Part shown: positions 4,098 to 27,290 of the stretch, piece after piece
How the letters are laid out: each line of letters begins with the position of its first letter
Numbering within the stretch: position 1 is the stretch's first letter
Assembly (NCBI GenBank): GCA_964423535.1
Contig: CAYREW010000003.1
Span: 1 to 29,617 of the forward strand
DNA from: an uncultured Candidatus Saccharibacteria bacterium
Lineage (GTDB): Bacteria > Patescibacteriota > WWE3 > JAUXAW01 > CAYREW01
DNA length: 29,617 nucleotides
Direction: 5' to 3'
Notes under the pieces: generated by a model
Database searches by the model: none
What the model saw: only the letters and a program-made list of their open reading frames with translations
What the model was told of the DNA's origin: nothing
Position numbers and translations under genes: made by a program

Positions 4098-4174
<77 letters not shown>

Positions 4175-5807: not shown

Positions 5808-5998
5808 TAGATTTAGAATAAACTAAAACTAGGTTGGAGTCCACCGTTATGAGCCGAATTTGCTCCGACAGTTACCCGTCGGAGGGCCAATCGTCAATTA
5901 GCCATGCAACACCTGTTCCGACACCCCGATATAAAATCGGGGAAACCTCCTTTCAGAGGCGGTCGTCGGAATGTCAAGCCCTGGTAAGATTCTTCGGT

Positions 5999-6036
<38 letters not shown>

Positions 6037-6037
6037 A

Positions 6038-6071
<34 letters not shown>

Positions 6072-6722: not shown

Positions 6723-6884
6723 CTAGTTGAAGAACAAAACAGAGAAAAAGAATTACTAATTACTAATTTCTAATTACTAATGAAGTAACAAAATTGTGCG
6801 TTTCTACAAATAAAACCCTACAGGTTTCATTAGAAATTAGTTATTAGATATTAGAAATTTTTCCCCGCTTAGCTCTTCAACTAG
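6723..6884 (-). repeat. Insert in 16S h9: 11-bp stem plus 140-nt CTAATTW-periodic hairpin
   Basis: ctagttgaaga/tcttcaactag enclose inverted arms of ctaatta/ctaattt and ttagaaa/ttagata units. Confidence 0.85.
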
Positions 6885-7190
6885 ACCATGGTGTATTAGC
6901 CAACCTTTCGGCCGGTTATTCACCTCTCAGAGGTAGGTTCCCACGTGTTACTCACCCGTCCGCGACTATCCCGACACGAGGTCGGGACCGTTTCACTTGC
7001 ATACCTTAAGCACGCCGCCAGCGTTCATCCTGAGCCAAGATCAAACTCTTATAAAAAATACGAGTACTATATCTTAACGATAATACGCTAAAATAAAACT
7101 CTTAGAAATACAGCTGTAATTGACTATACAGCTGGTAAAAAAATCTTCCCGCTTTTCAAAATTCATTACATTAATATAAATTAAAAAGCT

Positions 7191-7271: not shown

Positions 7272-7375
7272 AATTACTAATTGCTAATTACTAATTTCTA
7301 ATTAATAAGGGTTTTTTCCTACTTGAAAGCGCAATCTCACTTATTAGAAATTAAATATTAGTAATTAGAAATTTA
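7272..7375. repeat. CTAATTW 7-mer inverted-repeat cassette at the pth stop
   Basis: Arms 7272-7309 and 7340-7375; same family as the 16S h9 insert. Confidence 0.8.
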
Positions 7376-11083: not shown

Positions 11084-12913
11084 TCAATTGTTATTCCTTA
11101 CACCCTGGTCTTTAAACATAGTTTTTAGCTCTTTCAAAGATGTGGCATCTTCTGCTTTTTTATCATCCCTCCAGGATGTCAGCCGCGGAAAGCGAAGAGC
11201 GTAGCCAGCAGTGTGTAACGGGCTTTCCGTTATTTCATCCGCGCTAATTTCGACAATTATATCAGGACTTGACCACACTGACGGTTTCAGCTCTTTGGGA
11301 ACACTGTAACGTGCAGGAGGTTCAGCCGCCTCTGCGTTATCACACCTCTTCTTCATCTCCCTCCACTGCTCATCTGTCAATCCTGTCCCAATTTTACTCA
11401 CTGTTTTAAATAAATCAGCTTCTGAATCGTAAACTCCAACTAAAAAAGCACCAATTCCTAACTCACTGCGCCTGCCTTTGCCGCTGTAGTATCCGAGAAC
11501 AACACAGTCCACAGTGTCAGACAATAAAGAATCTTCACCCTCATACTTAAACTTAACCCAGGAAAAACCCCTTGTACCAGCTTCGTACTCTGAATTACCA
11601 TTTTTTAAAACTAAACCTTCTAAACCTTGCTCAACAGCATTTTCCAATTCCTCAATCAGCTCTTCTGCTGATTCAATTTTTTTGTTCTTAGTAAGCTGTA
11701 AATCCGCATCTTTACCATCAATAACTTCTTTAAGTATTCTTCTACGAGCAGTATAGCTCTGTTTTAACAAACTCTCACCATTTAAATACAAAAGATCAAA
11801 AACAAAATAACGCAAAGGAACTTCAGCGCTTTTCTCCTCAATGCCGTATTTACGCTTCCGCTGCATTGTTACCTGAAACGGGAGATAATTACCGCTTTTA
11901 GGGTCGTAACCTACTGCTTCCCCATCCAAAATTAAACTTTCCGCATTTGTATTTTCCACCACTGCTGAAAGTATATCCGGAAACATAAGGGTTACATCTT
12001 CCAAATTTCTGGTAAAGGCTTTGAGCAAACATCCCCTACCTACACTCTCCTTGTTTTGAAACAAAGTCTGCTCCTCCCCCTCCGCCGGTTGAGATTTATC
12101 CAAATGGACCTGGACTCTTGTACCGTCAAATTTTGCTTCTGCATAAACATGCTTCATCTTTTCCATTATTTCCTCTGCAGTTGGAATACGCTGACAAAGC
12201 ATAGGCAAAACAGGCCTGCCCACAGTAACAGATACCTGCTCTATCCCTTTTTTACCCTTTTTCCGGAAAGTCTTTGCAATATAACCAATATCGGGACAAG
12301 CATTGTAAGCTTGCTCAAGAGGGTTGCGTAAAGATTTGTCTTCTTTCTCCATCCAGGACAAAGCATCTAAAATAGTTTTTTCCCCCAAACCTAAACGCAT
12401 TTTTTCAATTGGTATTCGGACTACGTATTTAGCACTCAAGGAAGATATTTGCGAAAGCAGATTAGCAAACTGTTTGCTTTTGCGCTCAACCGAACCTTTG
12501 CCTTCTACAACGGCGATTTCCAACAGCTTGTTGTGAATATCAAGAACAGTTAAAGACCCTGCTTTTAAAGACCCTGCTTTTGAAGACCCTGCTTTTGAAA
12601 ACCCTGCTTTCCTATTTTCGGAAAGCTTTTCTGCAACTTCACCCAAGTCACCGCGCTGCTCAAACAAATCTTTGACTTTTTCCTGTTCCGTTTTGTAAGC
12701 TTGAGCAATAATTTTCACCATCATTTTTTCACCAAGATTAAATTTCACTGTTTCGTAAAGGGGTGCAACTCTACCGACAAGTAAATAGCAAAGTTTATCA
12801 ATTTCTTCTGCTGAGCTTTTTTCCAATATTTCAGCCAAGATCTCCGTCATTTCGTTGCGGGAGTCAGTTGATTCAAGTTGGTGGAGATAGTTAGAAAACG
12901 TTTTAAATAGCAT
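11084..12913 (-). CDS. lig: ATP-dependent DNA ligase (archaeal/eukaryal-type DBD-NTase-OB layout)
   Basis: Motif I EAKFDG, LDGEAV, VFDLLY, EGLVLK, WVKFK and LRFPR. Confidence 0.93.
   Translation of the reverse strand: MLFKTFSNYLHQLESTDSRNEMTEILAEILEKSSAEEIDKLCYLLVGRVAPLYETVKFNLGEKMMVKIIAQAYKTEQEKVKDLFEQRGDLGEVAEKLSENRKAGFSKAGSSKAGSLKAGSLTVLDIHNKLLEIAVVEGKGSVERKSKQFANLLSQISSLSAKYVVRIPIEKMRLGLGEKTILDALSWMEKEDKSLRNPLEQAYNACPDIGYIAKTFRKKGKKGIEQVSVTVGRPVLPMLCQRIPTAEEIMEKMKHVYAEAKFDGTRVQVHLDKSQPAEGEEQTLFQNKESVGRGCLLKAFTRNLEDVTLMFPDILSAVVENTNAESLILDGEAVGYDPKSGNYLPFQVTMQRKRKYGIEEKSAEVPLRYFVFDLLYLNGESLLKQSYTARRRILKEVIDGKDADLQLTKNKKIESAEELIEELENAVEQGLEGLVLKNGNSEYEAGTRGFSWVKFKYEGEDSLLSDTVDCVVLGYYSGKGRRSELGIGAFLVGVYDSEADLFKTVSKIGTGLTDEQWREMKKRCDNAEAAEPPARYSVPKELKPSVWSSPDIIVEISADEITESPLHTAGYALRFPRLTSWRDDKKAEDATSLKELKTMFKDQGVRNNN
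12552..12611. repeat. 4 x 15-bp in-frame tandem repeat in the ligase
   Basis: Units (a/g)aa(g/a)accctgcttt(t/c), encoding KAGFS-KAGSS-KAGSL-KAGSL. Confidence 0.9.
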
Positions 12914-12941: not shown

Positions 12942-13027
12942 CCTGTTAGACTGCTATATTGTTATCCTGTTACACACCTTATTTATCAAGGTCCGGTTGC
13001 AGAGTAACAGGATACCAGCATAGCAGG
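12942..13027. repeat. Empty TATCCTG/CAGGATA inverted-repeat cassette
   Basis: Left arm ctgctatattgttatcctgttac, right arm gtaacaggataccagcatagcagg, 30-nt spacer. Confidence 0.75.
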
Positions 13028-13081
13028 TTTCCTTACATAAACTAAATAAACCACATCACCGAACTCAGAATCTTGTAAAAA

Positions 13082-13873
13082 TTAGCCTCCCCTGTAATAC
13101 CCCCACAAAGCCTCAAATTGCGCTCTTTCGTGCTCTGCAAGAGTCTCCTCCTCAATAATTACCCCTACCAAATTATCGTGGGAAATATAAGCAACTTTGT
13201 TCATATAAATTTGTTTATCTACGTGGCCGAAAGCTGTTTGCGGATTGCTGGGCATTATTACTATTTCGTGGTTTGCCGAAGCATACTTTTCCTTGTATTC
13301 GCGGACAGCAGGGTTTTCCTCCAAAAGCTCGCGGGTTGGAATTTTTCTACTCTCAACCTGCTCAATAAAATCTTTTAGATAATTTGGATCGGCGTGGAAA
13401 GACTTCTGGACATCTGCACTTCCCTGGCAAATTATTAAAATCTCATCGCTCTTTAGCGCATCGTAATAAACAGTTTCCAAACCGCCCTCTCCTTCAAAAA
13501 AGCGGACTTTCGGAAACTGGGGCTCGTGAGAACGGTGCAGAACACTTAAAAAAGGCAAATCTTTGGAAAGTTTACCTAAATTACGGTCCACTTCACTTGC
13601 TTTTTCTGATAATAGAAGGTGGAGCCTTTCCGGACTTTCCGAAGTAAAATGCTTTGTATTTTCCACTGTAACGCACGAAATTAATCCCTGCTTAACCAAA
13701 TCATCCAGTAAACCGTAAGTTGTGCTACGCGGCACTTTAGAGCGTTTTGCAATATGCGAGGCTGGAGCACTCCCCTCTTCTAAGCATGCCAAATACACCG
13801 ACGCGTGCTCCGGAGTTAAATTTAACTGACGAAAACAATTGCGGATGGATTCTGTCGCCGGCTTCGACAACAC
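13082..13873 (-). CDS. TrmB-family transcriptional regulator
   Basis: N-terminal wHTH (ASHIAKRSKVPRSTTYGLLDDL) and VRFFEGEGG motif; GTG start uncertain. Confidence 0.85.
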   Translation of the reverse strand: MLSKPATESIRNCFRQLNLTPEHASVYLACLEEGSAPASHIAKRSKVPRSTTYGLLDDLVKQGLISCVTVENTKHFTSESPERLHLLLSEKASEVDRNLGKLSKDLPFLSVLHRSHEPQFPKVRFFEGEGGLETVYYDALKSDEILIICQGSADVQKSFHADPNYLKDFIEQVESRKIPTRELLEENPAVREYKEKYASANHEIVIMPSNPQTAFGHVDKQIYMNKVAYISHDNLVGVIIEEETLAEHERAQFEALWGYYRGG

Positions 13874-13951
13874 TTTGATTAATACTATTATAAAAGGTAG
13901 AATACTGTCAAGAGTTGGAACAGTATCTGATAAAGTAAGCGAGGGGGTCCC

Positions 13952-14197
13952 ATGCGGTTACGACTGTTATGCAGATTATTGAAAATAGATTTAGAGTTTA
14001 TAAGGTCGGGAAGTATTTTTGATGGTGAAACAGTACAGTGCCATTTAGAGCAGGTACTTAGCAGTGAAAACTTGGAACAAAACGTACACAGAAATGCAAA
14101 AAAGGCTTCAAAGCTGATCTATTACGGATTTGTTGAGGAACAGGACATTCCCAAACTGGCGAAATTACTAGAAAGTATAATAGCTGAACTTAAGTAA
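13952..14197 (+). CDS. Hypothetical protein (81 aa)
   Basis: Fills an intergenic gap, has a GAGGGGG SD-like site and is followed by a terminator. Confidence 0.5.
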   Translation: MRLRLLCRLLKIDLEFIRSGSIFDGETVQCHLEQVLSSENLEQNVHRNAKKASKLIYYGFVEEQDIPKLAKLLESIIAELK

Positions 14198-14213
14198 GGT
14201 GTGGATTGATTAA

Positions 14214-14257
14214 AGCAGCGTTTGGGCAAAGGTAACCGCTCGGACGTTGCTTTTTTT
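14214..14257 (+). terminator. Intrinsic terminator
   Basis: 14-bp stem with G:U pairs (agcagcgtttgggc/gctcggacgttgct) followed by a T-run. Confidence 0.7.
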
Positions 14258-14330
14258 ATTTCAGCAAAAGGTCTGTAAACCACTCGGTATTTCAAAACAA
14301 ATTGCTATAGAAAGAAATATCACAGCATAC

Positions 14331-14362
14331 TTAGAAATTAGTTATTAGAAATTAGAAATTTA
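14331..14362. repeat. TTAGAAA 7-mer array at the recF stop
   Basis: 14331-14349 is identical to 6830-6848 in the 16S h9 insert. Confidence 0.75.
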
Positions 14363-15469
14363 TTTTCCCAACTCTATAACAACAGACCGCTCCTTAAAAT
14401 ATTTCCGCACAATATCCGGATTTGTAGTCGTCACAATCGTCTGCTGTTTTGGAATCACTTCCAAAATACCGACGCGGTTTTCCGCATCCAGCTCTGAAAA
14501 AACATCGTCTAAAAGAAGTATAGGACGCTCACCAGTAATTTGGGAACGCACCTCAAGTTCAGCAAGCTTTAGAGCTGTTACTGCCAACCTCTGTTCTCCT
14601 CTTGACCCGTACACCGACAAATCGATTGCTCTATTATTCGTTTCAATTTGTGAACCTTCCGTATTCGCGTTAATCCGTGTAAAACTAAAATCGTCACGGT
14701 GCGGACCTAAAATTGTTGTCCCCAGCCGAACCTCGTCTTTTCTTACCTCCCTAAATTTATCCAAATCCAGCACTTCCGGATTGTATTTAAGAAGCAAACT
14801 ATCCAGAACTCCGTACTTATTCTTACTCAACACCTGATTTAGTTTATTTACAAGTTCTGTTCTTCCCCGGGTAATTTTATTTCCCAATTCAACTACTCTT
14901 TCCGTCCATAAATGCCAATCGGTTCCGTTTGAATTTCCTTTCTGCATTGCTTTTAGAAGATTGTTTCTTTGAATGCGTGCTTTCCTATATTTTGAGGCTA
15001 TAGAGGAATAATCAACAGCAACAGCAAAAAGTATAGAATCTAAATAATCCCGCCTTCTGGAAGGCGAACCTAAAATTAATCTTATCTCTTCGGGACCAAA
15101 ATAAACAACCTGAAAATTGCTGGCAAAGCTTTTCCTCTTTCTTCCCACACCCTCTACAACATATTTCTTACGCACTCTGTTTGTATCTTCCCCATCATAA
15201 ACAGCATTTACTCCTAACTGTGTTGCCCCACTTTGCTCTCCCTTTTCCAATACAGCTTCAAGGTGAAAACTTTCGTTCCCGCTCTGAATTAGATGCTCTC
15301 CATGGTGCTCGCTAAAAGATCTTCCTGTTGCCAATAGTACAATTGCTTCTAGAAGATTGGTTTTACCGGCTGTATTGGGGCCGATTACAACAGTCAAATC
15401 AGGACTGAACTCAAAATCAGCCTGATTATAACTGCGGAAGTTGGTTAGAGAAAGCGTGTGTAAATACAT
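14360..15469 (-). CDS. recF: DNA replication/repair protein RecF
   Basis: NFRSY, Walker A GPNTAGKTN, GPHRDD, GSRGEQR, LLLDDVFSELD. Confidence 0.96.
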   Translation of the reverse strand: MYLHTLSLTNFRSYNQADFEFSPDLTVVIGPNTAGKTNLLEAIVLLATGRSFSEHHGEHLIQSGNESFHLEAVLEKGEQSGATQLGVNAVYDGEDTNRVRKKYVVEGVGRKRKSFASNFQVVYFGPEEIRLILGSPSRRRDYLDSILFAVAVDYSSIASKYRKARIQRNNLLKAMQKGNSNGTDWHLWTERVVELGNKITRGRTELVNKLNQVLSKNKYGVLDSLLLKYNPEVLDLDKFREVRKDEVRLGTTILGPHRDDFSFTRINANTEGSQIETNNRAIDLSVYGSRGEQRLAVTALKLAELEVRSQITGERPILLLDDVFSELDAENRVGILEVIPKQQTIVTTTNPDIVRKYFKERSVVIELGK

Positions 15470-15592
15470 TAACTGGAAAAATTATATCAAGAAAAATCTG
15501 AGAATTTACAGCTCAGCGCAGAGAACATGCTGCCAGGATATCAGGATAACAGAGTGGAAAGAAAATCTTGCATAAATCTTATTATTAAAATA

Positions 15593-16567
15593 TCAGTTGT
15601 CTTGACAGACGGGGCAGTAGAATGTTCCTCTTCCTCCTACCTTAATCCTCTTAATTATCCCACCATCGTCTCTTAAACAAGGCTTGTCTTTACGACCGTA
15701 TACTTTGAAATTCTGCTGGTAACTTCCTTTTCCACCGTGCGCATCCCTGTACCACATATCCGATGCCCCCTTTGTTTCTAAACCCTCCTTCAAAACTTTC
15801 TCTACTGCCTGGTATAAATTCTCCATTTGGTTTTCGGATAAGCTCTTTGCAGGGGTTTCAGGATGAATCTTAGCCAACCATAAAGCATCATTAGCATAAA
15901 TATTACCTATTCCAGCAATCCTCTTTTGGTCAATCAAAACTGTCTTAACCATTGCCCTTGTATTGGAAAGTATTTTTTTGAATTTATCTAAGGTTAGGTC
16001 GTCCAGAGGTTCGGGTCCGTATTTTTTTAGCGCTTGTTTAACCTCATCTTCGCCAGCAAGCTTAATGTATCCAAACTTGCGAGCATTGGCAAAACGCAGT
16101 TCTTTCCCTTTAGAAAGCTTTATCCATACCTCAACATATTTATCTTCAGGATCATTCTGGTTGCGGATAAGTAGACGGCCGGACATGCGGAGGTGGCAGA
16201 GGAGAAAAGTGTAATCGCCATCCTGGAACACATCATCCTGAGCTGTCCCACCCCCGTCATTCTGAGCATTACCCCCGTCATTCTGAGCGGAGCGAAGAAT
16301 CCCCTGCAAGTCTTGACCAACATGGGATTCTTCGGCTGTGTTTCTCACAGCCTCAGAATGGCGGCTGTTAGAAGAAAGCACAAAAACAAGGAGCTTAGCG
16401 CGGCGCCCTACACCTGTAAACTGTTTACCGACAATTACCTGCTTCACCTCCTGCGGATCCGGTTTAAGAAGCCGTTTATCCTCCCAAACAACATCCCGGA
16501 CTTCCAGTCCAACTAATTCTTTATTTAACTCGCGTCGTATTGTTTCTACTTCTGGTAATTCTGGCAT
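15593..16567 (-). CDS. mutM: Formamidopyrimidine-DNA glycosylase with an about 49-aa repeat-derived insertion
   Basis: MPELPEVE start, RRAK, HLRMSG, H2TH GIGNIYA; C-terminal zinc finger whose first pair reads CxxD. Confidence 0.95.
   Translation of the reverse strand: MPELPEVETIRRELNKELVGLEVRDVVWEDKRLLKPDPQEVKQVIVGKQFTGVGRRAKLLVFVLSSNSRHSEAVRNTAEESHVGQDLQGILRSAQNDGGNAQNDGGGTAQDDVFQDGDYTFLLCHLRMSGRLLIRNQNDPEDKYVEVWIKLSKGKELRFANARKFGYIKLAGEDEVKQALKKYGPEPLDDLTLDKFKKILSNTRAMVKTVLIDQKRIAGIGNIYANDALWLAKIHPETPAKSLSENQMENLYQAVEKVLKEGLETKGASDMWYRDAHGGKGSYQQNFKVYGRKDKPCLRDDGGIIKRIKVGGRGTFYCPVCQDN
16220..16366. repeat. REP-like GTCATTCTGAG element inside mutM
   Basis: gtcattctgag..gaagaatccc / gggattcttc..ctcagaatggc inverted repeat plus two extra tandem left-end copies. 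Confidence 0.85.
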
Positions 16568-16575
16568 AATATTCC

Positions 16576-16635
16576 TTAACTGTTCTTGCCCTGCACCCTA
16601 CGTGGTGCAGGGTCCACTTCCGGTAATTCCGGCAT
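16576..16635 (-). pseudogene. Relic mutM start: 19-aa mini-ORF MPELPEVDPAPRRVQGKNS
   Basis: ATGCCGGAATTACCGGAAGTG then a palindrome and TAA; TGnTAAAAT lies 6 nt upstream. Confidence 0.8.
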
Positions 16636-16775
16636 ATTGAGATTTTAACATAAGGGTGTAAAGGGTTTTAATTTAGTTCCCTGGGTAACTTAAGATTCTT
16701 AAGTAACTTAGGAGGAAGAACCTTCTGTGCCAAAAGTACTGAAATAGCAACGGTTACGTTGCGCCCTGAAGATCG

Positions 16776-17855
16776 CTACTCAGAAAGAGTACGCCCCGCC
16801 GTTACTAAATCTATAAACCCCTGCATAAAATTATCCTTGCTAAACTTTCTAGCCTCAGCAATACAGTCTTCACTACGATACTTCGAAGTATCGAAGTGTT
16901 CAAGAACAGAGGTGAGACTTTCTACTGTAGGACTGTTGAAGAAAGCGCCTGTCTTACCTTCAATAACAGTTTCCTCTGCTCCCCCGCCGCGGAGCGCAAT
17001 TACCGGTTTGCCGTAACTCATTGCTTCCACAGGCACAATGCCGAAATCCTCCTCGGAAACAGGAAAAATTACTGCTGTGCAGCTCCTATAAAGATTTTCC
17101 AGTTCACTATCGGAAACAAATCCCAGCATTTCCACGCTTGGTCCGGCAAGTTTGCGCAACTTATTTTCCTCTCTGCCTGTGCCAACAACTTTAAGCGGCA
17201 ATCCCAGCTTACTGCAAGCTCTAATTGCAACATCAACGTTTTTGTAAGCGGAGAGGCGCCCGACATACAAATAGAAGTTTTCCATATCATAGGTCCCGTT
17301 TGTCGTATTTGACTTATTCAGGGTAACCACAGGAGGATATATAACAGCATCAACTTCCCTCCCCCAAAACTTTTTAATTCTTTTTGCTGTATTTTTAGAG
17401 TTAGCAACAATAACATCAGGGCGCTGGGCAGAAGAAAAATCCCAAAGGCGAAGTAGATGATCAATTGGTCTCAACAAAGGACCAATTAAAGAGCCGCGCC
17501 TGTCAATTTCGCTAGGATAGTTATACAAAAACCGCGGCGGGGTGTGGCAGTAAAATATGTGCAGCTGTTCGGGAGTAGTTAATACACTTTTAGACCAAAT
17601 TGTGCCGTCGGAGATTATTACATCGTAACCGCGGAGGTCAAAGCTTTCAAAAGCCAGAGGCAAAAAACAAGTGGCAGCTTTACCCAGCTTACCTAAAACT
17701 CCCCCAACCTTGCGAATCTGACTGCTTTCAATTGTTGATTGATTATAAAAAGATGTAAAAACAGGAGCTTTAGGATACATTTCTTTTAAAACTGCCAGTA
17801 CCCTTTCCGCACCGCCGAATTCAGTTAAATAATCGTGGACTAAAGCTACATCCAT
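16776..17855 (-). CDS. Glycosyltransferase family 4
   Basis: VALVHDYL..GGAERV, YCHTPPR and EDFGIVPVEAM motifs. Confidence 0.93.
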   Translation of the reverse strand: MDVALVHDYLTEFGGAERVLAVLKEMYPKAPVFTSFYNQSTIESSQIRKVGGVLGKLGKAATCFLPLAFESFDLRGYDVIISDGTIWSKSVLTTPEQLHIFYCHTPPRFLYNYPSEIDRRGSLIGPLLRPIDHLLRLWDFSSAQRPDVIVANSKNTAKRIKKFWGREVDAVIYPPVVTLNKSNTTNGTYDMENFYLYVGRLSAYKNVDVAIRACSKLGLPLKVVGTGREENKLRKLAGPSVEMLGFVSDSELENLYRSCTAVIFPVSEEDFGIVPVEAMSYGKPVIALRGGGAEETVIEGKTGAFFNSPTVESLTSVLEHFDTSKYRSEDCIAEARKFSKDNFMQGFIDLVTAGRTLSE

Positions 17856-17900
17856 AAACTTATTTTACCATTTAAGCAAAAAAAACTGGTTTGCATCCAA

Positions 17901-17929
17901 TTGACACAAACGTACGTTTATGGTATCTT
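17901..17929 (+). promoter_or_regulatory. TA operon promoter with palindromic operator
   Basis: TTGACA-17-TATCTT; perfect palindrome aaacgtacgttt (17908-17919) in the spacer. Confidence 0.75.
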
Positions 17930-17937
17930 TGCTAATA

Positions 17938-18201
17938 ATGAAAAAAATTCAAAAAATAGGCGCTACAGAAGCCAGAAATGACTTTTTTAATTTACTTACA
18001 AAAAGCTTTAAAAAGAAACAGCCTTATTTAATTGAAAAAGGCAAAATACCAACTGCTTATTTAATACCAGTAACGCTGGAAAAACCAGGAAAAGGGGCTG
18101 GAAACAGCTATGCAGACGAGTTACTAAAACTCAAGGGAAGCTGGTTCTCATATAAAGATTGGGTAACTATTAGAGAGGAAGTGGCTAACAGAGAACTATA
18201 A
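17938..18201 (+). CDS. Phd/YefM-like antitoxin
   Basis: IGATEARNDF..PYLIEK Phd-like N-terminus; start moved to 17938 because ATG 17920 lies within the promoter. Confidence 0.8.
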   Translation: MKKIQKIGATEARNDFFNLLTKSFKKKQPYLIEKGKIPTAYLIPVTLEKPGKGAGNSYADELLKLKGSWFSYKDWVTIREEVANREL

Positions 18202-18212
18202 ACTGCAGCAAA

Positions 18213-18605
18213 ATGGAAACAAACAGCTATCTCCTAGACACATCTGTAATTATTGATTTTCTCCGCAAAGAAAACAAAGAGCAAACCCTTCTGTACAAAA
18301 TAGCAAAAGACAATTCGAACCTGTATATATCATTAATAACGCATACAGAAATCTACGCTGGGAAAAGTGTTTGGGAAAACGAAGACGCGCATCAGGAATT
18401 GGAAACAATTTTCAAAGGTACAGAAATATTGGAAGTAAATAAAGAAATTTCCAAAAGCGCCGGAAAGATAAGAGCGCAAAGCGGTGTGGATTTAATAGAC
18501 GCAATTATAGCTGCAACAGCGGAACAATATAACTTGCCGCTGGTAACATTGAATATTAAGCATTTTGACCAAATTAAAGACCTACAAGTAAAAAAGATTA
18601 AATAA
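18213..18605 (+). CDS. vapC: VapC-type PIN domain toxin
   Basis: LLDTSVIID, E, DAIIAATA and TLNIKHF PIN motifs. Confidence 0.92.
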   Translation: METNSYLLDTSVIIDFLRKENKEQTLLYKIAKDNSNLYISLITHTEIYAGKSVWENEDAHQELETIFKGTEILEVNKEISKSAGKIRAQSGVDLIDAIIAATAEQYNLPLVTLNIKHFDQIKDLQVKKIK

Positions 18606-18645
18606 TTATTGACAGCTCAGTAACTAATATATATTCTAAAAACAG

Positions 18646-19566
18646 ATGAACAAATTATTCTCCTGGATTAAAAATAATAAACTCGCAGCTTTCCTCATTG
18701 CTTTAATTGCCGGTTACATTATCTACAACAATTTTCTTCTTAAACTAGTTTCAACAGCACAATACAGCCCGGCAAACTACAGCAGTTACGGCAGAAGCAA
18801 TCAAATGCTGGATACAGTTTCCATGGAAAAGAGCAGTATTGGTATTCCAACACCGGAAGCAGCTCCAACAACAGATACCGAAGAGCGCATGGTGGTAAGA
18901 AATTCCAACCTGTCCTTAGTTGTCAACAATGTTTCAGAAGCGCAGGACCAGATCCTTAACAGAGTAAAAACACTGGGCGGCTATATGGTCAGCACCAGCC
19001 TTAAAAATCCACAAGAAGCAGCAACAGCAACAATTACAGTAAGAATTCCCGAAGAAAAGCTGGACCAGGCGTTAGAGTACTTCCGCAACGTATCTACAAA
19101 GGTGGTTTCTGAAAATCTTTATGGAAAGGATGTAACAGATGAGTATATTGATATTGATGAACGTCTGGACGCTTACAACAAAACAAAAGTAAAGTTTGAA
19201 ACAATCCTGGAGCAAGCGGAAGAAGTGGAGGATTTGCTTACAGTCCAAAAAGAGCTTATTAATCTACAACAAAAAATTGACAGCCTCAAAGGGCAGCAAA
19301 AGTACCTAGAGCAGAATGCTGCGCTTTCAAAAGTAACTATCTACCTTTCCACCGACGAGTACAGTCTCCCCTACACTCCTTCCGAAACCTGGCGGCCGAA
19401 AGTAATCTTTAAAAAAGCTGTCCGCTCGTTAATTAAAACTCTGCGCGGAATTGGTTCACTGGCAATTTGGCTGGGAGTTTACTCAGTACTAATAATTCCG
19501 GTAATTGTAATTATCTGGCTGATCCGGAAAAGAAAAAAGAATAAACCCTCTAGTCCAGAAGCTTAA
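18646..19566 (+). CDS. DUF4349-like membrane protein
   Basis: N- and C-terminal TM segments, ATITVRIP, DVTDEYID and a coiled coil; TTGACA-17-TATTCT at 18609-18637. Confidence 0.85.
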   Translation: MNKLFSWIKNNKLAAFLIALIAGYIIYNNFLLKLVSTAQYSPANYSSYGRSNQMLDTVSMEKSSIGIPTPEAAPTTDTEERMVVRNSNLSLVVNNVSEAQDQILNRVKTLGGYMVSTSLKNPQEAATATITVRIPEEKLDQALEYFRNVSTKVVSENLYGKDVTDEYIDIDERLDAYNKTKVKFETILEQAEEVEDLLTVQKELINLQQKIDSLKGQQKYLEQNAALSKVTIYLSTDEYSLPYTPSETWRPKVIFKKAVRSLIKTLRGIGSLAIWLGVYSVLIIPVIVIIWLIRKRKKNKPSSPEA

Positions 19567-19654
19567 AAACTTTTCCCCATTCCTATTGCAAGTCTATAGG
19601 TGCTTGAAGTAATATATTTATATATAAAAAACTCAGCAAAAGGAGGAGACTGTA

Positions 19655-20077
19655 ATGTACATAATTACAACCAGCTGTCCGAACTGCTTTGAAGACACTA
19701 CAGTTACATCTCCGGATACACCGCGCTACGAAAGTACACGAAAAACAAAACTGTGCGGAAATTGCGGGAAAGCAATAATTGTAGTTGAGGTCTTCCCTAA
19801 CAACGCAATCTTTGTTATCTACACCGACTTGAGAAACAAAGATAATGGAAGAGAGCACAGAGCAGAACGATGGGTACCGTTAGTTGAAAACAAACCGGCA
19901 AAGGAAGCAGATAATTTGCCATCAAGGTTTAAGCGCTACAGAAAAGCTTTCAATAATAAAGCCTGGCTGGCTTTCCAGACAGATCCGGATTATTATCTGC
20001 AAGTTGATAGGTGGATAGATATAGAGCAGGATTACGAGGAAGAAGAAGAAGAAGAAAAGCAAGCAGTATTAGTTTAA
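19655..20077 (+). CDS. Hypothetical protein with CxxC..CxxC zinc ribbon and acidic tail
   Basis: CPNC and CGNC; strong SD AAGGAGGAG. Confidence 0.7.
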   Translation: MYIITTSCPNCFEDTTVTSPDTPRYESTRKTKLCGNCGKAIIVVEVFPNNAIFVIYTDLRNKDNGREHRAERWVPLVENKPAKEADNLPSRFKRYRKAFNNKAWLAFQTDPDYYLQVDRWIDIEQDYEEEEEEEKQAVLV

Positions 20078-20166
20078 CTAAACTACGTACAGCTTGGACC
20101 TTCGTCCAAGCTCTGCGTAAAAAAAGACGCGCAACAGAATTAGGCTTTCCTACTCTGTTGCGTTTT

Positions 20167-20925
20167 TTATTTGCGGGCAGTAACCAAAACTCTGCGCGGG
20201 AAGCCGAACAGCCGCGTTAAAAATAATGCTGCAAACACCTTAATCCATCCAAATAAAGAGGATTTAAACAGACGCGGCCCCTCAAAGTACTGTACAATAT
20301 TTTTATAACCCACTCCCCTCAAATCTTTTTTTAAAATTAAACCGCTAATCCCTCTTTCCGTAACTGAGTACTTTTTTGATACATATTTTGCATGCGGAGA
20401 TATATAATGGGGAAAGGGAGGTTCATAAATTATAATTTGACCACCTTTTTTTAATGCGTTGTATGCTGATTCCAAAACATCTTTTTGATTGTTGCAGTGG
20501 TGGAGTGAATCGTAGATTAATACTGCGTCAAATTCGTTTTCATAGGTAAGGTTTTCCATGTCGGCAATTGTGAATTTAGGTGGTTTTATTACAACTTTAG
20601 CTGCAGCCGCGTGCGCTGCCTTTGAGGCGGCATACGATGCCGCAGCTACAGATCTACGCTCAGCAATCCCCACCATCCCGGGAGAGATATCCACCCCCAC
20701 AACTTCGTATCCGCAGCGGGCTAAAAATATGCTTGTCCACCCGGGTCCAACTCCTAAATCAAGTATTCTCCCACCGGCAGGAAGATCTAAAACCTGCAAA
20801 ATCGCAGCAAAATCAAAAAAATTGCGGTAATCATTTTTGCACCACGGTTTTACAAGCAAATGCTGATAGCCTTCTTTAGACAGATTTTTTGGATAGTTTA
20901 CTTCACCTTGTTTAGACATATACAC
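20167..20925 (-). CDS. Class I SAM-dependent methyltransferase
   Basis: ILDLGVGPG, VVGVDIS, ADMENL, FDAV, LHH and LKKGG motifs; start GTG 20925 or ATG 20919. Confidence 0.9.
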   Translation of the reverse strand: MYMSKQGEVNYPKNLSKEGYQHLLVKPWCKNDYRNFFDFAAILQVLDLPAGGRILDLGVGPGWTSIFLARCGYEVVGVDISPGMVGIAERRSVAAASYAASKAAHAAAAKVVIKPPKFTIADMENLTYENEFDAVLIYDSLHHCNNQKDVLESAYNALKKGGQIIIYEPPFPHYISPHAKYVSKKYSVTERGISGLILKKDLRGVGYKNIVQYFEGPRLFKSSLFGWIKVFAALFLTRLFGFPRRVLVTARK

Positions 20926-21109
20926 TCAAATTGGGTCACACCGTTAATTGTAATGCTTATTAGATTTAAACTAAAGTGCGGAGATCTGAATAGAGATATT
21001 AAGCTAAGATATTATGATATTAGGATATCATCCCTGTAAACTTGCAGGGAACCACTTTATATGAGACTATATAAGTCGAAAAAGGTGGCTGAAGAAAGGA
21101 GGAGAAAAC

Positions 21110-21373
21110 ATGCCGCAGAAAGCTGTTGTTGTTTTTTCAAATGTGCCTGAAAATGCAACTGGCCAGGATGTTCTTTTATCGCTGAGACAAGTATTAAATG
21201 CTGTTGAATCCGACACTTCTGAAGTAATAAAACCAACTACTGTATTTGTTGAAGGCGAACTTACAAAAGGAAGTGTTATCTTACTTGAGGATTTTCGCAA
21301 AAATCAGACAGTACTGATGTATGGACGAAAAGATAGAAAAACAACAAGCGCTGGAGGAGCATTAGGAGGCTAG
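21110..21373 (+). CDS. Hypothetical protein, paralog of 21776-21988
   Basis: SD AAGGAGGAG; N-terminus KAVVVFSNVP. Confidence 0.7.
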   Translation: MPQKAVVVFSNVPENATGQDVLLSLRQVLNAVESDTSEVIKPTTVFVEGELTKGSVILLEDFRKNQTVLMYGRKDRKTTSAGGALGG

Positions 21374-21374
21374 C

Positions 21375-21794
21375 ATGGACGACAAGTTGAAGATTGCAGT
21401 AATTTCTTCGCGTTTAGCGCTTAGGGCTGAGCGAGGGCAGATGGATTACCCTGCAAGAATCAAAAACACTGCCCAGCAATTGGGAACTCTTACACCCAAC
21501 AAGTACGAAGCCGACATCATTATCCTTATGCACGCAGAGCCGGAAGATGTAGCACAGCTGCGCTCTTCTCTTAGGCGTTCAGAAAGCGCTGGAGCCTTAA
21601 TTGCAGCAGTACTGACAATAGAACAAACACTGGACACCGAGACACTGGAAAAGTTTGAGCACTACGCAGACATCACTTTTACTGACAGAGAAAAGAGCAT
21701 AATGCTTAATCTTAAAAATTCTCTTACTCGAACAGTTGTAGAAAAAAAGAGGAGGGGGGGGGAAGGAGGAAGAGCATGGCTAACAAAGCTGTAA
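21375..21794 (+). CDS. Hypothetical protein, possible degenerate receiver-like fold
   Basis: Coupled to its neighbours; KIAVIS/ADIIILM/LIAAVLT/ADITFT beta-alpha spacing. Confidence 0.65.
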   Translation: MDDKLKIAVISSRLALRAERGQMDYPARIKNTAQQLGTLTPNKYEADIIILMHAEPEDVAQLRSSLRRSESAGALIAAVLTIEQTLDTETLEKFEHYADITFTDREKSIMLNLKNSLTRTVVEKKRRGGEGGRAWLTKL

Positions 21795-21988
21795 TTGTTC
21801 TTTCCAATATTCCGGTAGGAATGACTGCTAGGCAGGTGGAAGCGGCTGTCAACGTTGCTCTACAATCCGCTCTTAGAGGCAGAGCGAATCCGGAAGACCA
21901 GTTTGGACAGTTCTACCAATTCGCAAAGGTTGAACAAGTTACAGTAACGGAAGATGGAGAAGTACTGGACAGTGTTCAAAGACTGTAA
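21776..21988 (+). CDS. Hypothetical protein, paralog of 21110-21373
   Basis: SD AAGGAGG; N-terminus KAVIVLSNIP. Confidence 0.7.
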   Translation: MANKAVIVLSNIPVGMTARQVEAAVNVALQSALRGRANPEDQFGQFYQFAKVEQVTVTEDGEVLDSVQRL

Positions 21989-22005
21989 GAACTATTAATA
22001 CACAG

Positions 22006-22040
22006 CCGGGTAGGCAATAAATTTGCTTATCCGGTATTTT
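22006..22040 (+). terminator. Intrinsic terminator of the three-gene operon
   Basis: ccgggtaggcaa/ttgcttatccgg 12-bp stem followed by tatttt. Confidence 0.6.
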
Positions 22041-22052
22041 CTTGGGCACTAA

Positions 22053-22478
22053 TTAATCCGAATTTTTCACAAATTTATCCAAATCGCAATCAGAGTTTAT
22101 AACCCGCTTATACTCCAAACTCTCTTTACCAAAGTTGGCTACAATAGCTAAAGGCAGTCCTGTTGATCGCAAGTATGCTAAAACCTGTTTAAAAAATTTT
22201 GTGTGGTAGCTTCTTCTAGCTTTTAGCTCAAGAACTATCTTCTCTTCAATAATGAAATCTAATTTGTAGTATCCTATACTTTCATCCTCATACTTTAACT
22301 CTATTGGTGCTTCGCGATTATATTTTAACTCCTGATTGCGCAACTCAGCGGCCACAGCCCTTTAATAGTATTTCTCCAACATAGTAGGACCAAGCTCACG
22401 GTGAACCTTAAACAAAACACCTACTATTTTATAACTCAAATCCGGAAGAATTAGCTTTTTAGAATCATTCGTGTCCAT
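22053..22478 (-). pseudogene. GxxExxY protein (PD-(D/E)XK fold) with in-frame TAA at codon 39
   Basis: Reads MDTND..LGPTMLEKYY*RAVAAEL..YKLDFIIEEKIVLELKA; stop at 22362-22364. Confidence 0.85.
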
Positions 22479-22514
22479 TAGTATTAAATTCGTTTAAATT
22501 AGTGTAAAATTATT

Positions 22515-23537
22515 CTACATTAAAGCCAGCTGGCCACCGTCTCCCTCCCCCTCTTCCCCATTCACTATTCCATTCAACTCTTTAATCAAAGATTTAAATC
22601 CCAGAGGTTCTAAAACTGTCTCTGCTTCTTCTGTATCTATTTCAAAAACAGCATCATCTAAATCAAACTGCATTGGAACATCAGTAACTATTTTAGCCAA
22701 GGTTTTAGATAAAGCTGCCTGCTCCGCCTCCTCCGCCAGTTTTTTTGCTACTGATTTTTTTACCTCTCCCAAATTCTCAAAAATATCTTCAAGCGAATTA
22801 TATTCTTTAAGCAAAGCTGTAGCAGTTTTCTTCCCTATCCCCTTCACCCCCGGAATATTGTCGGAGGAATCCCCTTTTAACGCTTTGTAGTCAACAATTT
22901 TTTCCGGTGCAAAACCGTATTTTTCTTCCACCTGTTCGCGGTTGTAGATAATTGGGTTTGACAACCCCCTTTTAGGCATATAGGCCTTAATTGGACCATC
23001 AACAAGCTGAAGTAAGTCGCGGTCGCCGGAGACGATTAGGATTTCCAAATTATTCGATCTGTGTAGTTGCGACCCTTGTGGTCGCCCTTCTGCCGAGGCA
23101 GGGACAAGCCCTGCCTCGCCGGCAGGCAGGCCTGCAACTACATTTGCAGAGATTGTCCCAATAACATCATCTGCCTCATATCCGGCAACTTCGTAAACAG
23201 GTATTCCTAAACCGCGGACAACTTCGTGTGCAAGAGGAATCTGCTCTTTAAGTTCATCATCCACTTCCGGACGGTGTTCTTTATATGCTGTATATTCTTC
23301 GTGGCGGAAAGTAGGCTCCGGGCGGTCAAAAGCAACAGCTAAGTGAGTTGGTTCTAAATCTTTAATCAGCTTAAACAGCATGCGGGTAAAGCCGAAAACT
23401 GCATTTGTTACAGTACCGTCGGGTGAGGTTAAAGTTTTCGGCAAAGCATGGTATGCCCGGTGGAGCAAAGAATTACCATCAATGAGGACCAAGCGGGTTG
23501 AAATATTACCAGTACCGTTTCTAATTGCTTTTTCCAT
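22515..23537 (-). CDS. Stand-alone 5'-3' exonuclease/flap endonuclease (PolA N-terminal domain family)
   Basis: LIDGNSLLHRAYHA, YKEHR, YEADDVIG, SGDRD and GDSSDNIPGVKGIG motifs; no polymerase domain. Confidence 0.93.
   Translation of the reverse strand: MEKAIRNGTGNISTRLVLIDGNSLLHRAYHALPKTLTSPDGTVTNAVFGFTRMLFKLIKDLEPTHLAVAFDRPEPTFRHEEYTAYKEHRPEVDDELKEQIPLAHEVVRGLGIPVYEVAGYEADDVIGTISANVVAGLPAGEAGLVPASAEGRPQGSQLHRSNNLEILIVSGDRDLLQLVDGPIKAYMPKRGLSNPIIYNREQVEEKYGFAPEKIVDYKALKGDSSDNIPGVKGIGKKTATALLKEYNSLEDIFENLGEVKKSVAKKLAEEAEQAALSKTLAKIVTDVPMQFDLDDAVFEIDTEEAETVLEPLGFKSLIKELNGIVNGEEGEGDGGQLALM
23062..23142. repeat. 81-nt branched palindrome in frame in the exonuclease
   Basis: Outer stem tgtagttgc/gcaactaca; inner gcgacc/ggtcgc, ctgcc/ggcag and cctgcctcgccggcaggcagg. 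Confidence 0.85.
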
Positions 23538-23582
23538 TGTTTGTTCTTTATCCTGCTAACCTGTTATCCTGACAGCCTGTTA

Positions 23583-23948
23583 CTAATCTTTCAGGTTTTC
23601 TCTAGTCATTTTAATTAGATAGTTAATCTCTCTATGTAAACGAGAAAGTTCGTTTTCAAGTTGGTCTTTCTCCTCCTCACTTATTAACTCTCGTCTATAG
23701 CTTACTCTTGTCCAATGCTTAACTTCCAAAACAGAACCGCGCGCATAATAAAAAAACTTGATTTTATCTTTTTTGAAATATCGTCCGTGCCCCTCAGCAA
23801 TATTAGCAGCAGAAGAGTCTATAGACCGAACATACTGCGAACCGATAGTTTTACGAGGAAAATAATCCCATTTAGAAACCTTGTTCCATATATCGTCACT
23901 CAACTCGTTGGAAATTACATAAGCAGGAATATCGAGAAGGCTCTTCAT
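23583..23948 (-). CDS. Four-helix-bundle protein (23S rRNA IVS protein family)
   Basis: Q..RS..S..ANIAEG.GR, KFFYYARGS..E and W pattern; flanked by CTGTTA/TAACAG repeats. Confidence 0.92.
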   Translation of the reverse strand: MKSLLDIPAYVISNELSDDIWNKVSKWDYFPRKTIGSQYVRSIDSSAANIAEGHGRYFKKDKIKFFYYARGSVLEVKHWTRVSYRRELISEEEKDQLENELSRLHREINYLIKMTRENLKD

Positions 23949-24012
23949 GAATTAATTCCTAAAAAACAGGATAACAATCTAACAGGATAGCGCTCTAACC
24001 TGAGCTCAGAGA

Positions 24013-25914
24013 CTATAGCTCATTAGAGTTATTGCTAACCAAGCTTTTGAACTCTTCCTCTTCCAAAGTCTCTTGTTCTACAAGTTGATCTGCAATCTTA
24101 TCTAAGATATCGCGCTTTTCAACTAAAATTTGCTTAGCGCGCTCTAAACAATCATCAAGTATACGCTTTATTTCAGCATCTACTTTATTTGCCATTTCTT
24201 CTGAATAATCCGGGCTGGGGTTAAATCTATACGGCCAGGCATCTTCCTCATCAGGAGCTGAACCGGAAGAGAAAGGACCTAAATTACTCATTCCGTACTC
24301 AACTACCATTTTGCGAGCAATTTTACTTGCTTTTTTCAAATCGGAAGCAGCACCAACAGTCATTTCATCAAAGACTAACTGCTCAGCTGCTCTACCTCCG
24401 AGTAAAGCAGTAATTTGCTCCACCAAACGTGTTTTTGTCTCATTGTAGCGGTCTTTCAGCGGGGGGATCATTGTAAAGCCCAACGCTAAACCGCGGGAAA
24501 CTATAGAAACCCGGTGGACAGGATCCATATTAGGCAGTGAAGAACCAACCAAGGCGTGGCCGCCTTCGTGGTAAGCAGTCATTTTTTTATCTTCTTCCGA
24601 TTGCAAACGTTTCTTCTCCGGCCCCAGCTTAACTTTAGTTGCCGCCTCTTCAATATCTTCCATACTTATAGCAGCACGTTCTTGGCGGGCTGCCATAATT
24701 GCTGCTTCGTTCAACATATTTTCAATATCAGCACCACTAAAACCAACAGTACGGCGCGCTATTTTATTTATATCTACCCCATCCGCAAACGGTTTGCCGC
24801 GCATATGAATCTTAATAATCCCTTCCCTACCCTGAATATCAGGAAGGTCAAGAACAATGCGGCGGTCAAACCTGCCGGGCCGCACTAAAGCGGGATCCAA
24901 AAGCTCAGGTCTATTGCTTGCCCCTAAAACAATTACATTAGTATTCGGCGCAAAACCGTCCATTTCAACAAGTATCTGGTTCAATGTCTGCTCACGCTCA
25001 TCATGCCCACCACCAAAACCAACACCGCCCCGCCTGCGCCCAATACTTTCCAGCTCATCAATAAAAATCAATGCGGGAGCATTCTTTTTTGCATTGGCAA
25101 ACAAATCGCGAACTCTGCTTGGACCAACACCAACAAGCATTTCCATAAATTCAGATCCCGCCATATTAAAAAACGGGACATCTGCCTCATTAGCTACTGC
25201 CCTGGCAAGAAGAGTCTTTCCTGTCCCTGCAGGGCCGACTAAAAGAACACCTTTAGGTATTCGCGCGCCAAGCTTCCGGTACTTTTCTTGGTTCTTTAAA
25301 AAATCCACAATTTCACGCAATTCTTTTTTTGCTTCTTCAACACCAGCAGCATCATCAAAAGTTACTTTTTTATCACCGTCTTTATCATATTCCCGAGCTG
25401 TAGACTTACCTATCTGCAAAATATCTGTACCAGCACCGCGTGCTTGCTTAAAAATCCAAAAAAACAAACCGGCCATCAAAATAACAGGAATTATATTTAC
25501 CAGCAAATCCAACCACAAACCTGCTGGCGAAGGGTCTTTAATCTCTATTATTGCTTTTACAGAGTCCGGCTCTATATTGCTGTCCCTTAGTACTTCATAA
25601 AAAGACTGCTGCGCTTCTTTACGCGCAGCAAACTCTGTACCATCTTTAAGCGTGAAATAAACCATCTCTCCTTGTACTTCTATTTTCTGTACCTTGTTTT
25701 CTTTAACCAAGGAAAGAGCTTCAGAAAGAGGCTTTTCCGACAAAAAGGTGCTGGGGGTAATAAAAGCGCTGACAATCCAAAACAAAAGTAAACCACCAAA
25801 AACAAGTCCAGCAATAATACGCAAAATTTTGCTTTTACCTGAGGGTTTCTTACTTCCTTCTGGAGAGAGATTTTTAATACGCTTTCTTGGTAAATTCGGA
25901 TTGCTCATTGGCAT
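24013..25914 (-). CDS. ftsH: ATP-dependent zinc metalloprotease FtsH
   Basis: Two TM segments, GPAGTGKT, FIDELE, second region of homology, HEGGH; start may be 25908. Confidence 0.97.
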   Translation of the reverse strand: MPMSNPNLPRKRIKNLSPEGSKKPSGKSKILRIIAGLVFGGLLLFWIVSAFITPSTFLSEKPLSEALSLVKENKVQKIEVQGEMVYFTLKDGTEFAARKEAQQSFYEVLRDSNIEPDSVKAIIEIKDPSPAGLWLDLLVNIIPVILMAGLFFWIFKQARGAGTDILQIGKSTAREYDKDGDKKVTFDDAAGVEEAKKELREIVDFLKNQEKYRKLGARIPKGVLLVGPAGTGKTLLARAVANEADVPFFNMAGSEFMEMLVGVGPSRVRDLFANAKKNAPALIFIDELESIGRRRGGVGFGGGHDEREQTLNQILVEMDGFAPNTNVIVLGASNRPELLDPALVRPGRFDRRIVLDLPDIQGREGIIKIHMRGKPFADGVDINKIARRTVGFSGADIENMLNEAAIMAARQERAAISMEDIEEAATKVKLGPEKKRLQSEEDKKMTAYHEGGHALVGSSLPNMDPVHRVSIVSRGLALGFTMIPPLKDRYNETKTRLVEQITALLGGRAAEQLVFDEMTVGAASDLKKASKIARKMVVEYGMSNLGPFSSGSAPDEEDAWPYRFNPSPDYSEEMANKVDAEIKRILDDCLERAKQILVEKRDILDKIADQLVEQETLEEEEFKSLVSNNSNEL

Positions 25915-27195: not shown

Positions 27196-27290
27196 TACCT
27201 AACATTATTGTACCAAATTTTTTTACCCCCTAAAAAGTGTTGACAAAAATTTTATAAGAGTGTATAGTAATGACTGATAGAGTAAGACAA

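Follow-up and report, generated by a model that had tools for sequence, protein, structure and literature searches.

The stretch of DNA analysed here (29,617 nt, referred to as the window) is the whole of contig C3 from a genome (G000) of an uncultured Candidatus Saccharibacteria bacterium, which was recovered from a microbial-mat metagenome (750 kb in 81 contigs, 41% G+C, 86% complete). Its small size, an rRNA operon enlarged by inserts and its nearest protein matches point to an organism of the Patescibacteria (candidate phyla radiation) type. Between the genes for FtsH and for a 5'-3' exonuclease it carries a small gene of the 23S_rRNA_IVP family (hereafter IVP), a four-helix-bundle family first discovered among the open reading frames (ORFs) of 23S rRNA intervening sequences (IVSs), and this gene is enclosed by two inverted arrays of short tandem units (hereafter the arms). 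The loaded unit, at 23548-23991, takes up 444 nt of the 475-nt gap between the two host genes. All three genes lie on the minus strand, with ftsH upstream (24013-25914; Peptidase_M41, AAA and AAA_lid_3 domains), the IVP gene in the middle (23583-23948) and the exonuclease gene downstream (22515-23537; 5_3_exonuc_N and 5_3_exonuc domains). The IVP gene encodes an intact protein of 121 aa with the motif R..S...N..EG, and its family membership is given by full-length significant matches to PF05635 (8.6e-21, 74.6 bits against a cut-off of 33.8, positions 6-105 of 106 covered) and to TIGR02436 (3.1e-23, 82.1 bits against a cut-off of 24). A profile of its subfamily also matches the PDB entries 2GSC and 2RLD, each deposited with five chains.

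Read in the sense of the gene, the 5' arm (23965-23991, minus strand) consists of about 3.4 units of 8 nt (CCTGTTAG / ATTGTTAT / CCTGTT). It is separated from the ATG by a leader of 16 nt (23949-23964, minus strand, read directly from the sequence), in which an AGGA Shine-Dalgarno-like motif stands 9 nt upstream of the start codon. The 3' arm (23548-23582, minus strand; 4.4 units of the TAACAGGN type with an 8-nt period, delineated by TRF and a repeat search) begins directly after the IVP stop codon, ends 10 nt short of the exonuclease start codon and holds TAA/TAG in all three frames. Over 23-27 nt, and at a distance of 383-395 nt, one arm is the inverted complement of the other to 74-83%. 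Neither has a partner in its own vicinity, and the only pairing that they form encloses the gene; it is present in both the minimum free energy and the centroid structures of the cassette-wide fold. A perfect 10-nt palindrome, CTGAGCTCAG (24000-24009), separates the 5' arm from the stop codon of ftsH (24013-24015), and folds as a small hairpin in the same predicted structure. A first-pass annotation, made by a model from the sequence alone, had described a four-helix-bundle gene between inverted arms at this place, and both the arms and the profile matches bear this description out. Together with the comparisons presented below, these features lead us to read 23548-23991 as probably one heritable IVS-type module, in which an IVP gene is enclosed by inverted short-unit arrays, placed at an operon junction.

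The same annotation had proposed a test for junctions of these genes without the cassette, and they are readily found: ftsH adjoins the exonuclease gene in 17 related genomes (from the same order or class), and in 15 of the 17 the gap is gene-free and measures -17 to 107 nt, with the two genes overlapping or no more than 12 nt apart in 8 of these. One relative (L049) has a gene-less, AT-rich periodic hairpin of 143 nt at the junction and another (L025) a 506-nt gap filled by a GxxExxY gene with inverted arms of its own. An IVP gene was found at this junction in none of the 17 relatives, but only in the source genome and its close strains. The 444-nt IVP unit is an insertion between ftsH and the exonuclease gene in this lineage, and the gene is not syntenically fixed without its arms, because gene and arms have been inserted together at a junction that is empty in relatives. 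In the same-genus genome G001 one assembly break falls within the exonuclease gene and another lies past ftsH, and neither ftsH itself nor an orthologue of the IVP gene turned up there; the repeats may contribute to assembly breaks of this kind, here on both sides of the locus. No contig that skips 23548-23991 was found in four metagenome runs.

Inverted arms are a property of IVP genes well beyond this junction. The source genome has six IVP genes at five loci, all enclosed by inverted periodic arms when inspected by eye; the six paralogues are only 18-30% identical, and the arms belong to a different family at each locus. For every ORF of this genome we computed a bracket score, defined as the complementarity between the two 150-nt flanks. 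IVP loci rank 6th, 9th and 18th among 912 ORFs, and a score of at least 26 is reached at 3 of the 5 IVP loci against 17 of the 906 other ORFs (p = 9e-5), or 4 of 222 small ORFs. The top score of the genome (75) falls on rpsL and is caused by two complete hairpins in opposite orientation around that gene (C5:5323-5433 and 5915-6031, each of about 115 nt, with AATTACT/ATTAGAA units); secY, rpsM, ssb, lepB and parB also score high. Across 25 related genomes, where a locus was called bracketed if it exceeded the 99th percentile of a mismatched-flank null, this was so for 19 of 27 IVP loci and for 2 of 45 neighbour genes (p = 3e-9, a value which overstates the case because the relatives are not independent). 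A null that crossed loci was inflated by the homology of arms at different loci, and this null of unrelated flanks was used in its place. Stand-alone GxxExxY genes are bracketed in 10 of 15 cases, with arms rich in the CGAAT motif, and the enrichment of arms beside both kinds of gene, on which the first-pass annotation had staked its proposal, is accordingly present. The number of IVP genes per genome is very uneven among the relatives of the class (G001-G060): some families have 3-10 copies per 0.6-0.8-Mb genome, and two others (f5 and f16) have none in 12 and 14 sampled genomes.

The window itself contains a second cassette, next to the exonuclease gene, formed by a GxxExxY/PDDEXK_3 gene (22101-22442; PF13366, 6.8e-32; one TAA) with inverted flanks (22047-22504, minus strand). 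It is cleanly absent from G001, and also from a contig of run X2, of the same study, that joins position 22034 to 22534.

Comparison across phyla shows which parts of the module are conserved. The closest homologues of the IVP gene (58-61% identity) sit at unrelated junctions (pilin/prenyltransferase and sortase/radA-like), with arms that are visibly related. A scan of the subfamily, restricted to one genome per species, returned 80 loci, of which 78 were usable, in Patescibacteria, Bacteroidota, Ignavibacteria, Chlorobiota, Planctomycetota and Gammaproteobacteria. Arms are present at 59 of the 78 loci and have an 8-nt period in 54 of the 59; the sense-strand unit of the 5' arm is ATTGyTwa (consensus frequencies A.81, T.69, T.89, G.81, n, T.81), the most frequent number of units per arm is four, and the median distance is about 14 nt both from the end of the 5' arm to the start codon and from the stop codon to the 3' arm. 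Both neighbour genes are co-directional with the IVP gene at 66 of 74 loci, a count in which the background strand bias is uncontrolled. When the 5' arm of one locus is set against the 3' arm of another, the two are complementary in 55% of the pairs whose proteins are at least 45% identical, against 1-2% of the pairs below 45% identity and 6% when the arms are flipped. In this subfamily, gene and arms are inherited together: the arms track the protein, and the unit is conserved across phyla, as is the way in which it faces the gene. As a general rule for IVP genes, covariation of arms and protein was ruled out: in another subfamily that was sampled, arms are common to only 4 of 38 pairs at 45% identity or more, and the rule is limited to the subfamily described here. 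The same 8-nt arrays also occur at dozens of places in four cultured Bacteroidota genomes and one Patescibacteria genome, and most of the 17 places inspected in these five genomes have no IVP gene. Promoters of Bacteroidota carry the motif TAnnTTTG, and a promoter function of the array unit was considered and ruled out, as the unit is one T short of that motif and recurs in genomes of the candidate phyla radiation (CPR) and in Gammaproteobacteria; moreover, a promoter has no need of an inverted copy downstream.

Gene-less members of the arm families populate the window and the rest of the genome. An ORF-less hairpin of the same arm family as the loaded cassette lies at 12951-13026, between the genes for an ATP-dependent DNA ligase and a TrmB-like regulator; its arms (12951-12973 and 13004-13026, 23 nt, 87% complementary, with extra units out to 12939 and 13027) enclose a loop of 30 nt, and the z-scores of its fold energy are -4.0 and -5.0 on the two strands. 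The two copies had been paired in the first-pass annotation through identical 10-mers at 12960/23562 and 13005/23980, which we find as described, and the half copy noted there at 15534-15552 is a solo array of 2.4 units (CAGGATAA, by TRF) that has no complementary partner within 900 nt (best partner score 14). Allowing one mismatch, TAACAGGATA occurs 9 times in the window where 1.78 occurrences are expected, a number that was reached in 0 of 100 shuffles. Genome-wide, we counted 32 chains of CCTG/CAGG at 8-nt spacing, nearly all of them intergenic, and 0 in a shuffled genome; similarly, arrays of period 7 (194, against 27 after shuffling) and of period 8 (112, against 16) are enriched about seven-fold and form intergenic hairpins of several arm families. 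Within a family, the alignments of hairpin copies have their arms in common and not their loops. That the empty copies are recent deletion derivatives of the loaded one could be ruled out, because their loops are unrelated both to each other and to the ORF. The idea of one IVP "master" for each hairpin family was likewise rejected, since the large AAACTAAG-type family has no IVP gene in the 86% of the genome that is assembled.

The rRNA genes belong to the same picture. The rRNA operon (1-7051, minus strand) is enlarged by inserts, with a LAGLIDADG ORF within the 16S gene, and one of the inserts (6751-6859, minus strand) is an ORF-less hairpin in the 16S gene built of the 7-nt units AATTACT / ATTAGAA (found by TRF and in the hairpin list; fold z-score -3.5), with 82 BLAST matches outside the operon. 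Its arm family also brackets the IVP gene on contig C18 and recurs, with an unrelated loop, in an intergenic hairpin close by (7272-7373, fold z-score -3.2). More generally, the arms of the 16S insert and of inserts in two helices of the 23S rRNA recur on intergenic hairpins of other contigs, which supports the proposal of the first-pass annotation that the ORF-less rRNA inserts are empty relatives of the loaded cassette.

Differences between close strains give a view of how the module changes with time. A strain in run X3 has one extra 8-nt unit behind 23978, in the right (5') arm, and the arms thus gain or lose whole units, as read from the aligned contigs. A second strain contig (L105) differs from the source genome at only 2 of 372 and 6 of 358 bases in its two flanks, and its arms carry a single substitution, in the 3' arm, the 5' arm being identical; its ORF, however, differs from the source allele with a proportion of synonymous differences (pS) of 0.33 and a ratio of nonsynonymous to synonymous proportions (pN/pS) of 0.16, and has a premature TGA. 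By its sequence, this divergence is the signature of an allele imported by recombination after long purifying selection. The ORF, then, is on such comparisons under purifying selection and yet replaced or broken in close strains.

Over longer times, 3 of the 5 IVP loci are syntenic in G001, although the coding DNA is only 70-82% identical, so movement must be rare at best. Of these three, one is inverted and broken in G001, one has a single gene where the source genome has two, and one encodes a protein that is only about 50% identical; at the last, each pair of arms is complementary within itself (scores of 30 and 39), whereas complementarity across the two genomes amounts to only 16-17. At the orthologous site downstream of parB (G001:C15:10603-10896 against G000 C18:4515-4913), the G001 IVP gene lies on the strand opposite to its neighbours and has two stop codons, and such a flipped gene would fit either an inversion of the DNA that the arms enclose or a second, independent filling of the site. 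From the gain of a unit, the replacement of the ORF in L105 and the synteny with G001 taken together, we infer that the cassettes stay put for long periods, with an internal turnover much faster than that of their surroundings. The earlier proposal of a mobile system with gene-bearing and gene-less members is consequently supported in part, as regards the shared arm family and the insertion, and is unsupported as regards current mobility: the paralogues are 18-30% identical with different arms, most of the loci are syntenic, and neither a transposase nor a clear target duplication was found.

How could such a module operate? We favour co-transcription with the host operon followed by processing by RNase III, because the design is like that of the Coxiella IVS, an RNase III gene is encoded in the source genome and the arms are predicted to pair. 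The cassette would have no promoter of its own and would be transcribed together with the host operon, as is suggested by the co-directional neighbours at 66 of 74 loci. In the transcript, the arms would pair into a stem of about 27-35 bp, which, by analogy with the Coxiella IVS, would be cut by RNase III, and the cut would release the IVP message and part the ftsH transcript from that of the exonuclease. With stop codons in all three reading frames and an AGGA left in front of the exonuclease start, the arms would also make the insert tolerable to the host genes.

Several observations weigh against this picture of a mobile, RNA-processed module. No near-identical loaded copies were found within the genome, and the cassette yielded neither a transposase nor a clear target duplication: the sequence outside 23548 and 23991 has no visible repeat, and the empty site of the GxxExxY cassette offers a weak TTCT match only. 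Since recent movement, a transposase and a target duplication were all not seen, we call the element mobile from its filled and empty sites only. The syntenic loci of G001 and the second IVP subfamily, with its few shared arms, point the same way, as does the presence of hairpins of these families beside housekeeping genes such as rpsL. As for the RNA stem, the fold energy of the whole cassette is ordinary (z = -0.66), and the arm mismatches of 25 cassettes comprise 39 sense G:U, 30 antisense G:U and 97 others, with no excess of sense-strand G:U; because these mismatches have no strand bias, RNA-only selection on the stem is not demonstrated. Finally, a general run search, which was not dedicated to RNA, listed no RNA run with the locus.

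Of the other explanations, the one that survives best is recognition of the arms by the protein: an IVP oligomer would attach to the tandem units around its own gene (as RNA or as single-stranded DNA), one unit per subunit, so that the arms would be operator-like and the protein would regulate itself and act in trans on gene-less hairpins with the same units. We consider it rather unlikely. Several features speak for it: 5 of the 8 unit positions are kept across phyla at 45-55% protein identity, beyond what pairing needs, the arm sequence follows the subfamily in an orientation fixed relative to the ORF, and the ORF is under purifying selection. The mode is four units per arm, and the solved homologues 2GSC and 2RLD have five chains each, the former being described as a homopentameric ring (PMC4990558). 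Against it, the arms of the second subfamily diverge (4 of 38 pairs share them) while its proteins are still 50-65% identical, strains keep the arms beside a broken ORF, and large arm families such as the AAACTAAG type (48 arrays) are without an IVP gene in the assembled 86% of the genome.

Two further kinds of repeated DNA in this genome bear on the next explanation. A structured repeat of 170-200 nt with GTATTCG...CGAATAC ends (fold energy -71 to -96 kcal/mol), which is not of the periodic-arm type, occurs in at least seven places (C10:7016-7190, C23:10909-11080, C23:6390-6588, C18:258-451, C53:1980-2176, C38:2536-2743 and C20:6004-6166), with one pair of copies 99.4% identical, and this suggests a recently active element resembling a miniature inverted-repeat transposable element (MITE) or a multicopy structured RNA. 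Contig C7 carries two genes for RAYT/IS200-like Y1 transposases of 256 aa (C7:3458-4228 and C7:13573-14343), each framed by its own inverted palindrome like those of repetitive extragenic palindromic (REP) elements (AAACAGAGC...GCTCTGTTT and AACCAAAAT...ATTTTGGTT).

The cassette might thus be a MITE- or REP-like DNA transposon, the arms being terminal inverted repeats (TIRs) cut by an enzyme acting in trans (one of the two Y1 transposases or the GxxExxY nuclease) and the IVP gene a passenger. We regard this as quite unlikely. Filled and empty sites of the neighbouring GxxExxY cassette within the genus, a single junction occupied by different cassettes in different lineages and the two transposase genes flanked by hairpins of their own all speak for it, and the nearly identical pair of structured repeats indicates that some element moves in this genome. 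The hairpins flanking the RAYT-like genes are, however, of a different, non-periodic family; no target duplication is seen at 23548/23991, loaded cassettes are never near-identical within this genome, and cassettes occur in many phyla without a linked enzyme. A passenger role would also leave the tracking of the IVP subfamily by the arms unexplained.

Very improbable, lastly, is a coincidence that has placed a short gene between two hairpins of a generic intergenic kind (resembling terminators, or arrays like simple sequence repeats or G-quadruplex formers): periodic-arm hairpins are common in this genome and flank rpsL, secY, rpsM, ssb, lepB and parB, and heptamer arrays with a preference for four units have been published between co-directional genes without a gene link (PMC4692102), but no more than 17 of the 906 ORFs outside the IVP family, and 4 of the 222 small ones, reach the bracket score of the IVP loci, rpsL owes its score to two complete hairpins where the IVP arms pair only across the gene, the units are not G-rich, and this explanation is already contradicted by the bracket counts, by homologous cassettes with the same arms in other phyla and by the tracking of the protein by the arms.

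We return to the IVS-type module, whose nearest counterparts are the ORF-bearing 23S IVSs of Leptospira, Coxiella, Xanthomonas and Brucella. These hold a gene of the same family (PF05635/S23p), and their terminal inverted repeats pair around the ORF into a stem of about 28 bp, as the arms could do here. The IVS in helix 45 of the Coxiella burnetii 23S rRNA measures 428-444 nt, against 444 nt here, and has a 28-bp stem with tandem heptamers of variable number; RNase III has been shown experimentally to cut inside this stem, and the ORF is decaying (PMC4990558). The likeness extends to the short tandem repeats in the stem (in its 5' part), to their strain-variable number, as in run X3, and to the decay of the ORF in some strains. 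Where the 23S IVSs occupy helix 25 or 45, this cassette has two protein-coding neighbours, ftsH and the exonuclease gene, and is 16 kb away from the rRNA operon; both of its arms are regular 8-nt arrays, with a unit conserved across phyla in the subfamily; many gene-less copies with the same arms accompany it; and cutting by RNase III is here a prediction, drawn by analogy. For CPR bacteria, IVP ORFs have been described in 16S and 23S inserts at scattered sites, accompanied at the tips of helices by shorter inserts that have no ORF (Tsurumaki et al. 2024, PMC11270868). That study concerns the same type of lineage and likewise IVP ORFs in rRNA inserts; it deals with rRNA genes only, and periodic inverted arms and copies outside rRNA are undescribed there, whereas in the present genome intergenic hairpins have the same arms as the 16S and 23S inserts.

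The arms alone recall the arrays of Xanthomonas and Nostoc (Rehm et al. 2015, PMC4692102), which consist of 7-nt units, preferably four, lie between co-directional genes near stop and start codons, frequently form convergent pairs, are transcribed and differ among relatives in the number of their units. The short tandem units, the preference for four, the co-directional genes and the variation in number are shared; those arrays are nevertheless G-rich, were read as G-quadruplex formers and were linked to no gene family, while ours are AT-rich, have periods of 7 or 8 nt and enclose IVP or GxxExxY genes. A small gene framed by a short repeat that has many gene-less copies is also the design of the REP/REPIN-RAYT system and of the nuclease Ssn, which acts on its own NTS repeat (PMC11893778). 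Unlike these, IVP has no known catalytic activity and its action on the arms is only putative, in contrast to that of Ssn, and the arms are tandem arrays and not single palindromes. The cassette is no REP/RAYT element in the strict sense, as its ORF is not a Y1 transposase and the two RAYT-like genes on C7 are framed by non-periodic hairpins; nor does it show the near-identical copies or the cognate transposase of a MITE or TIR element, since the paralogues are 18-30% identical with different arms, no transposase lies in the cassette and the empty copies share the arms only. It does not have the layout of an integron either, in which one attC stands 3' of each ORF in an array, being a single cassette with arms on both sides and at a distance of 3.3 kb from the nearest tyrosine recombinase (27270-28151), with ftsH and a tRNA gene in between.

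The Avd protein of diversity-generating retroelements (DGRs) belongs to a related four-helix-bundle family and binds nucleic acid. A link to DGRs was nevertheless ruled out, since a pair of template and variable repeats is absent, the differences between strains are not specific to adenine and no reverse transcriptase (RVT_1) match was found in the source genome, which is 86% complete.

Three further stretches are noted for completeness. The ATP-dependent DNA ligase gene contains a 15-nt unit repeated four times (12550-12610, 95% matches), which is an in-frame coding repeat of five residues. Within the exonuclease gene, the summed contig depth rises about 10-fold over some 90 nt (23074-23164; 89 against about 8), with many loose contig ends and, in one strain, a 21-nt deletion at 23110, which suggests a short stretch common to many other organisms, or a community repeat. 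On another contig (C22:9748-12112), near the end of its 12.1 kb, two perfectly identical copies of 1186 nt stand in tandem, which may reflect a genuine duplication, an artefact of the assembly or a circular element that was read through two times.

The nature of rRNA intervening sequences and the role of their conserved ORF have been open questions since about 1990 (PMC4990558). IVP genes have also been noticed inside cas operons (PMC3936711), and the module described here joins three things that had been described separately, namely IVS elements, short arrays between co-directional genes and IVP genes in cas and other operons; in the literature searched, no paper joined IVSs, IVP genes and short arrays, or reported arm units conserved with an IVP subfamily. 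New are, besides this conservation across phyla with a fixed orientation, the occupation of one junction in three ways, the arms common to rRNA inserts, intergenic hairpins and loaded cassettes in one genome, and the gain of units and replacement of the ORF at the level of strains. Ordinary operon junctions of six phyla or more harbour the gene-in-hairpin design, and its arms also occur on hairpins without a gene, both in the spacers between genes and in helices of the rRNA. The cassettes split operons, which is relevant to annotation, and the question is testable because the carriers include cultured strains of Pedobacter (P. jeongneungensis), Hymenobacter (H. caeli), Pontibacter (P. saemangeumensis) and Solitalea (S. 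longa). We put forward, tentatively and as a possibility that we do not expect to hold in full, that the IVP ring may be the specificity factor of its hairpin family, reading about four to five units of 7-8 nt, one per subunit, and so controlling or propagating both its own cassette and the gene-less hairpins, the 16S and 23S inserts included. If this were true, a widespread element made up of a protein and its repeats would count rRNA among its landing sites, and the classical intervening sequences would be the special case found there.

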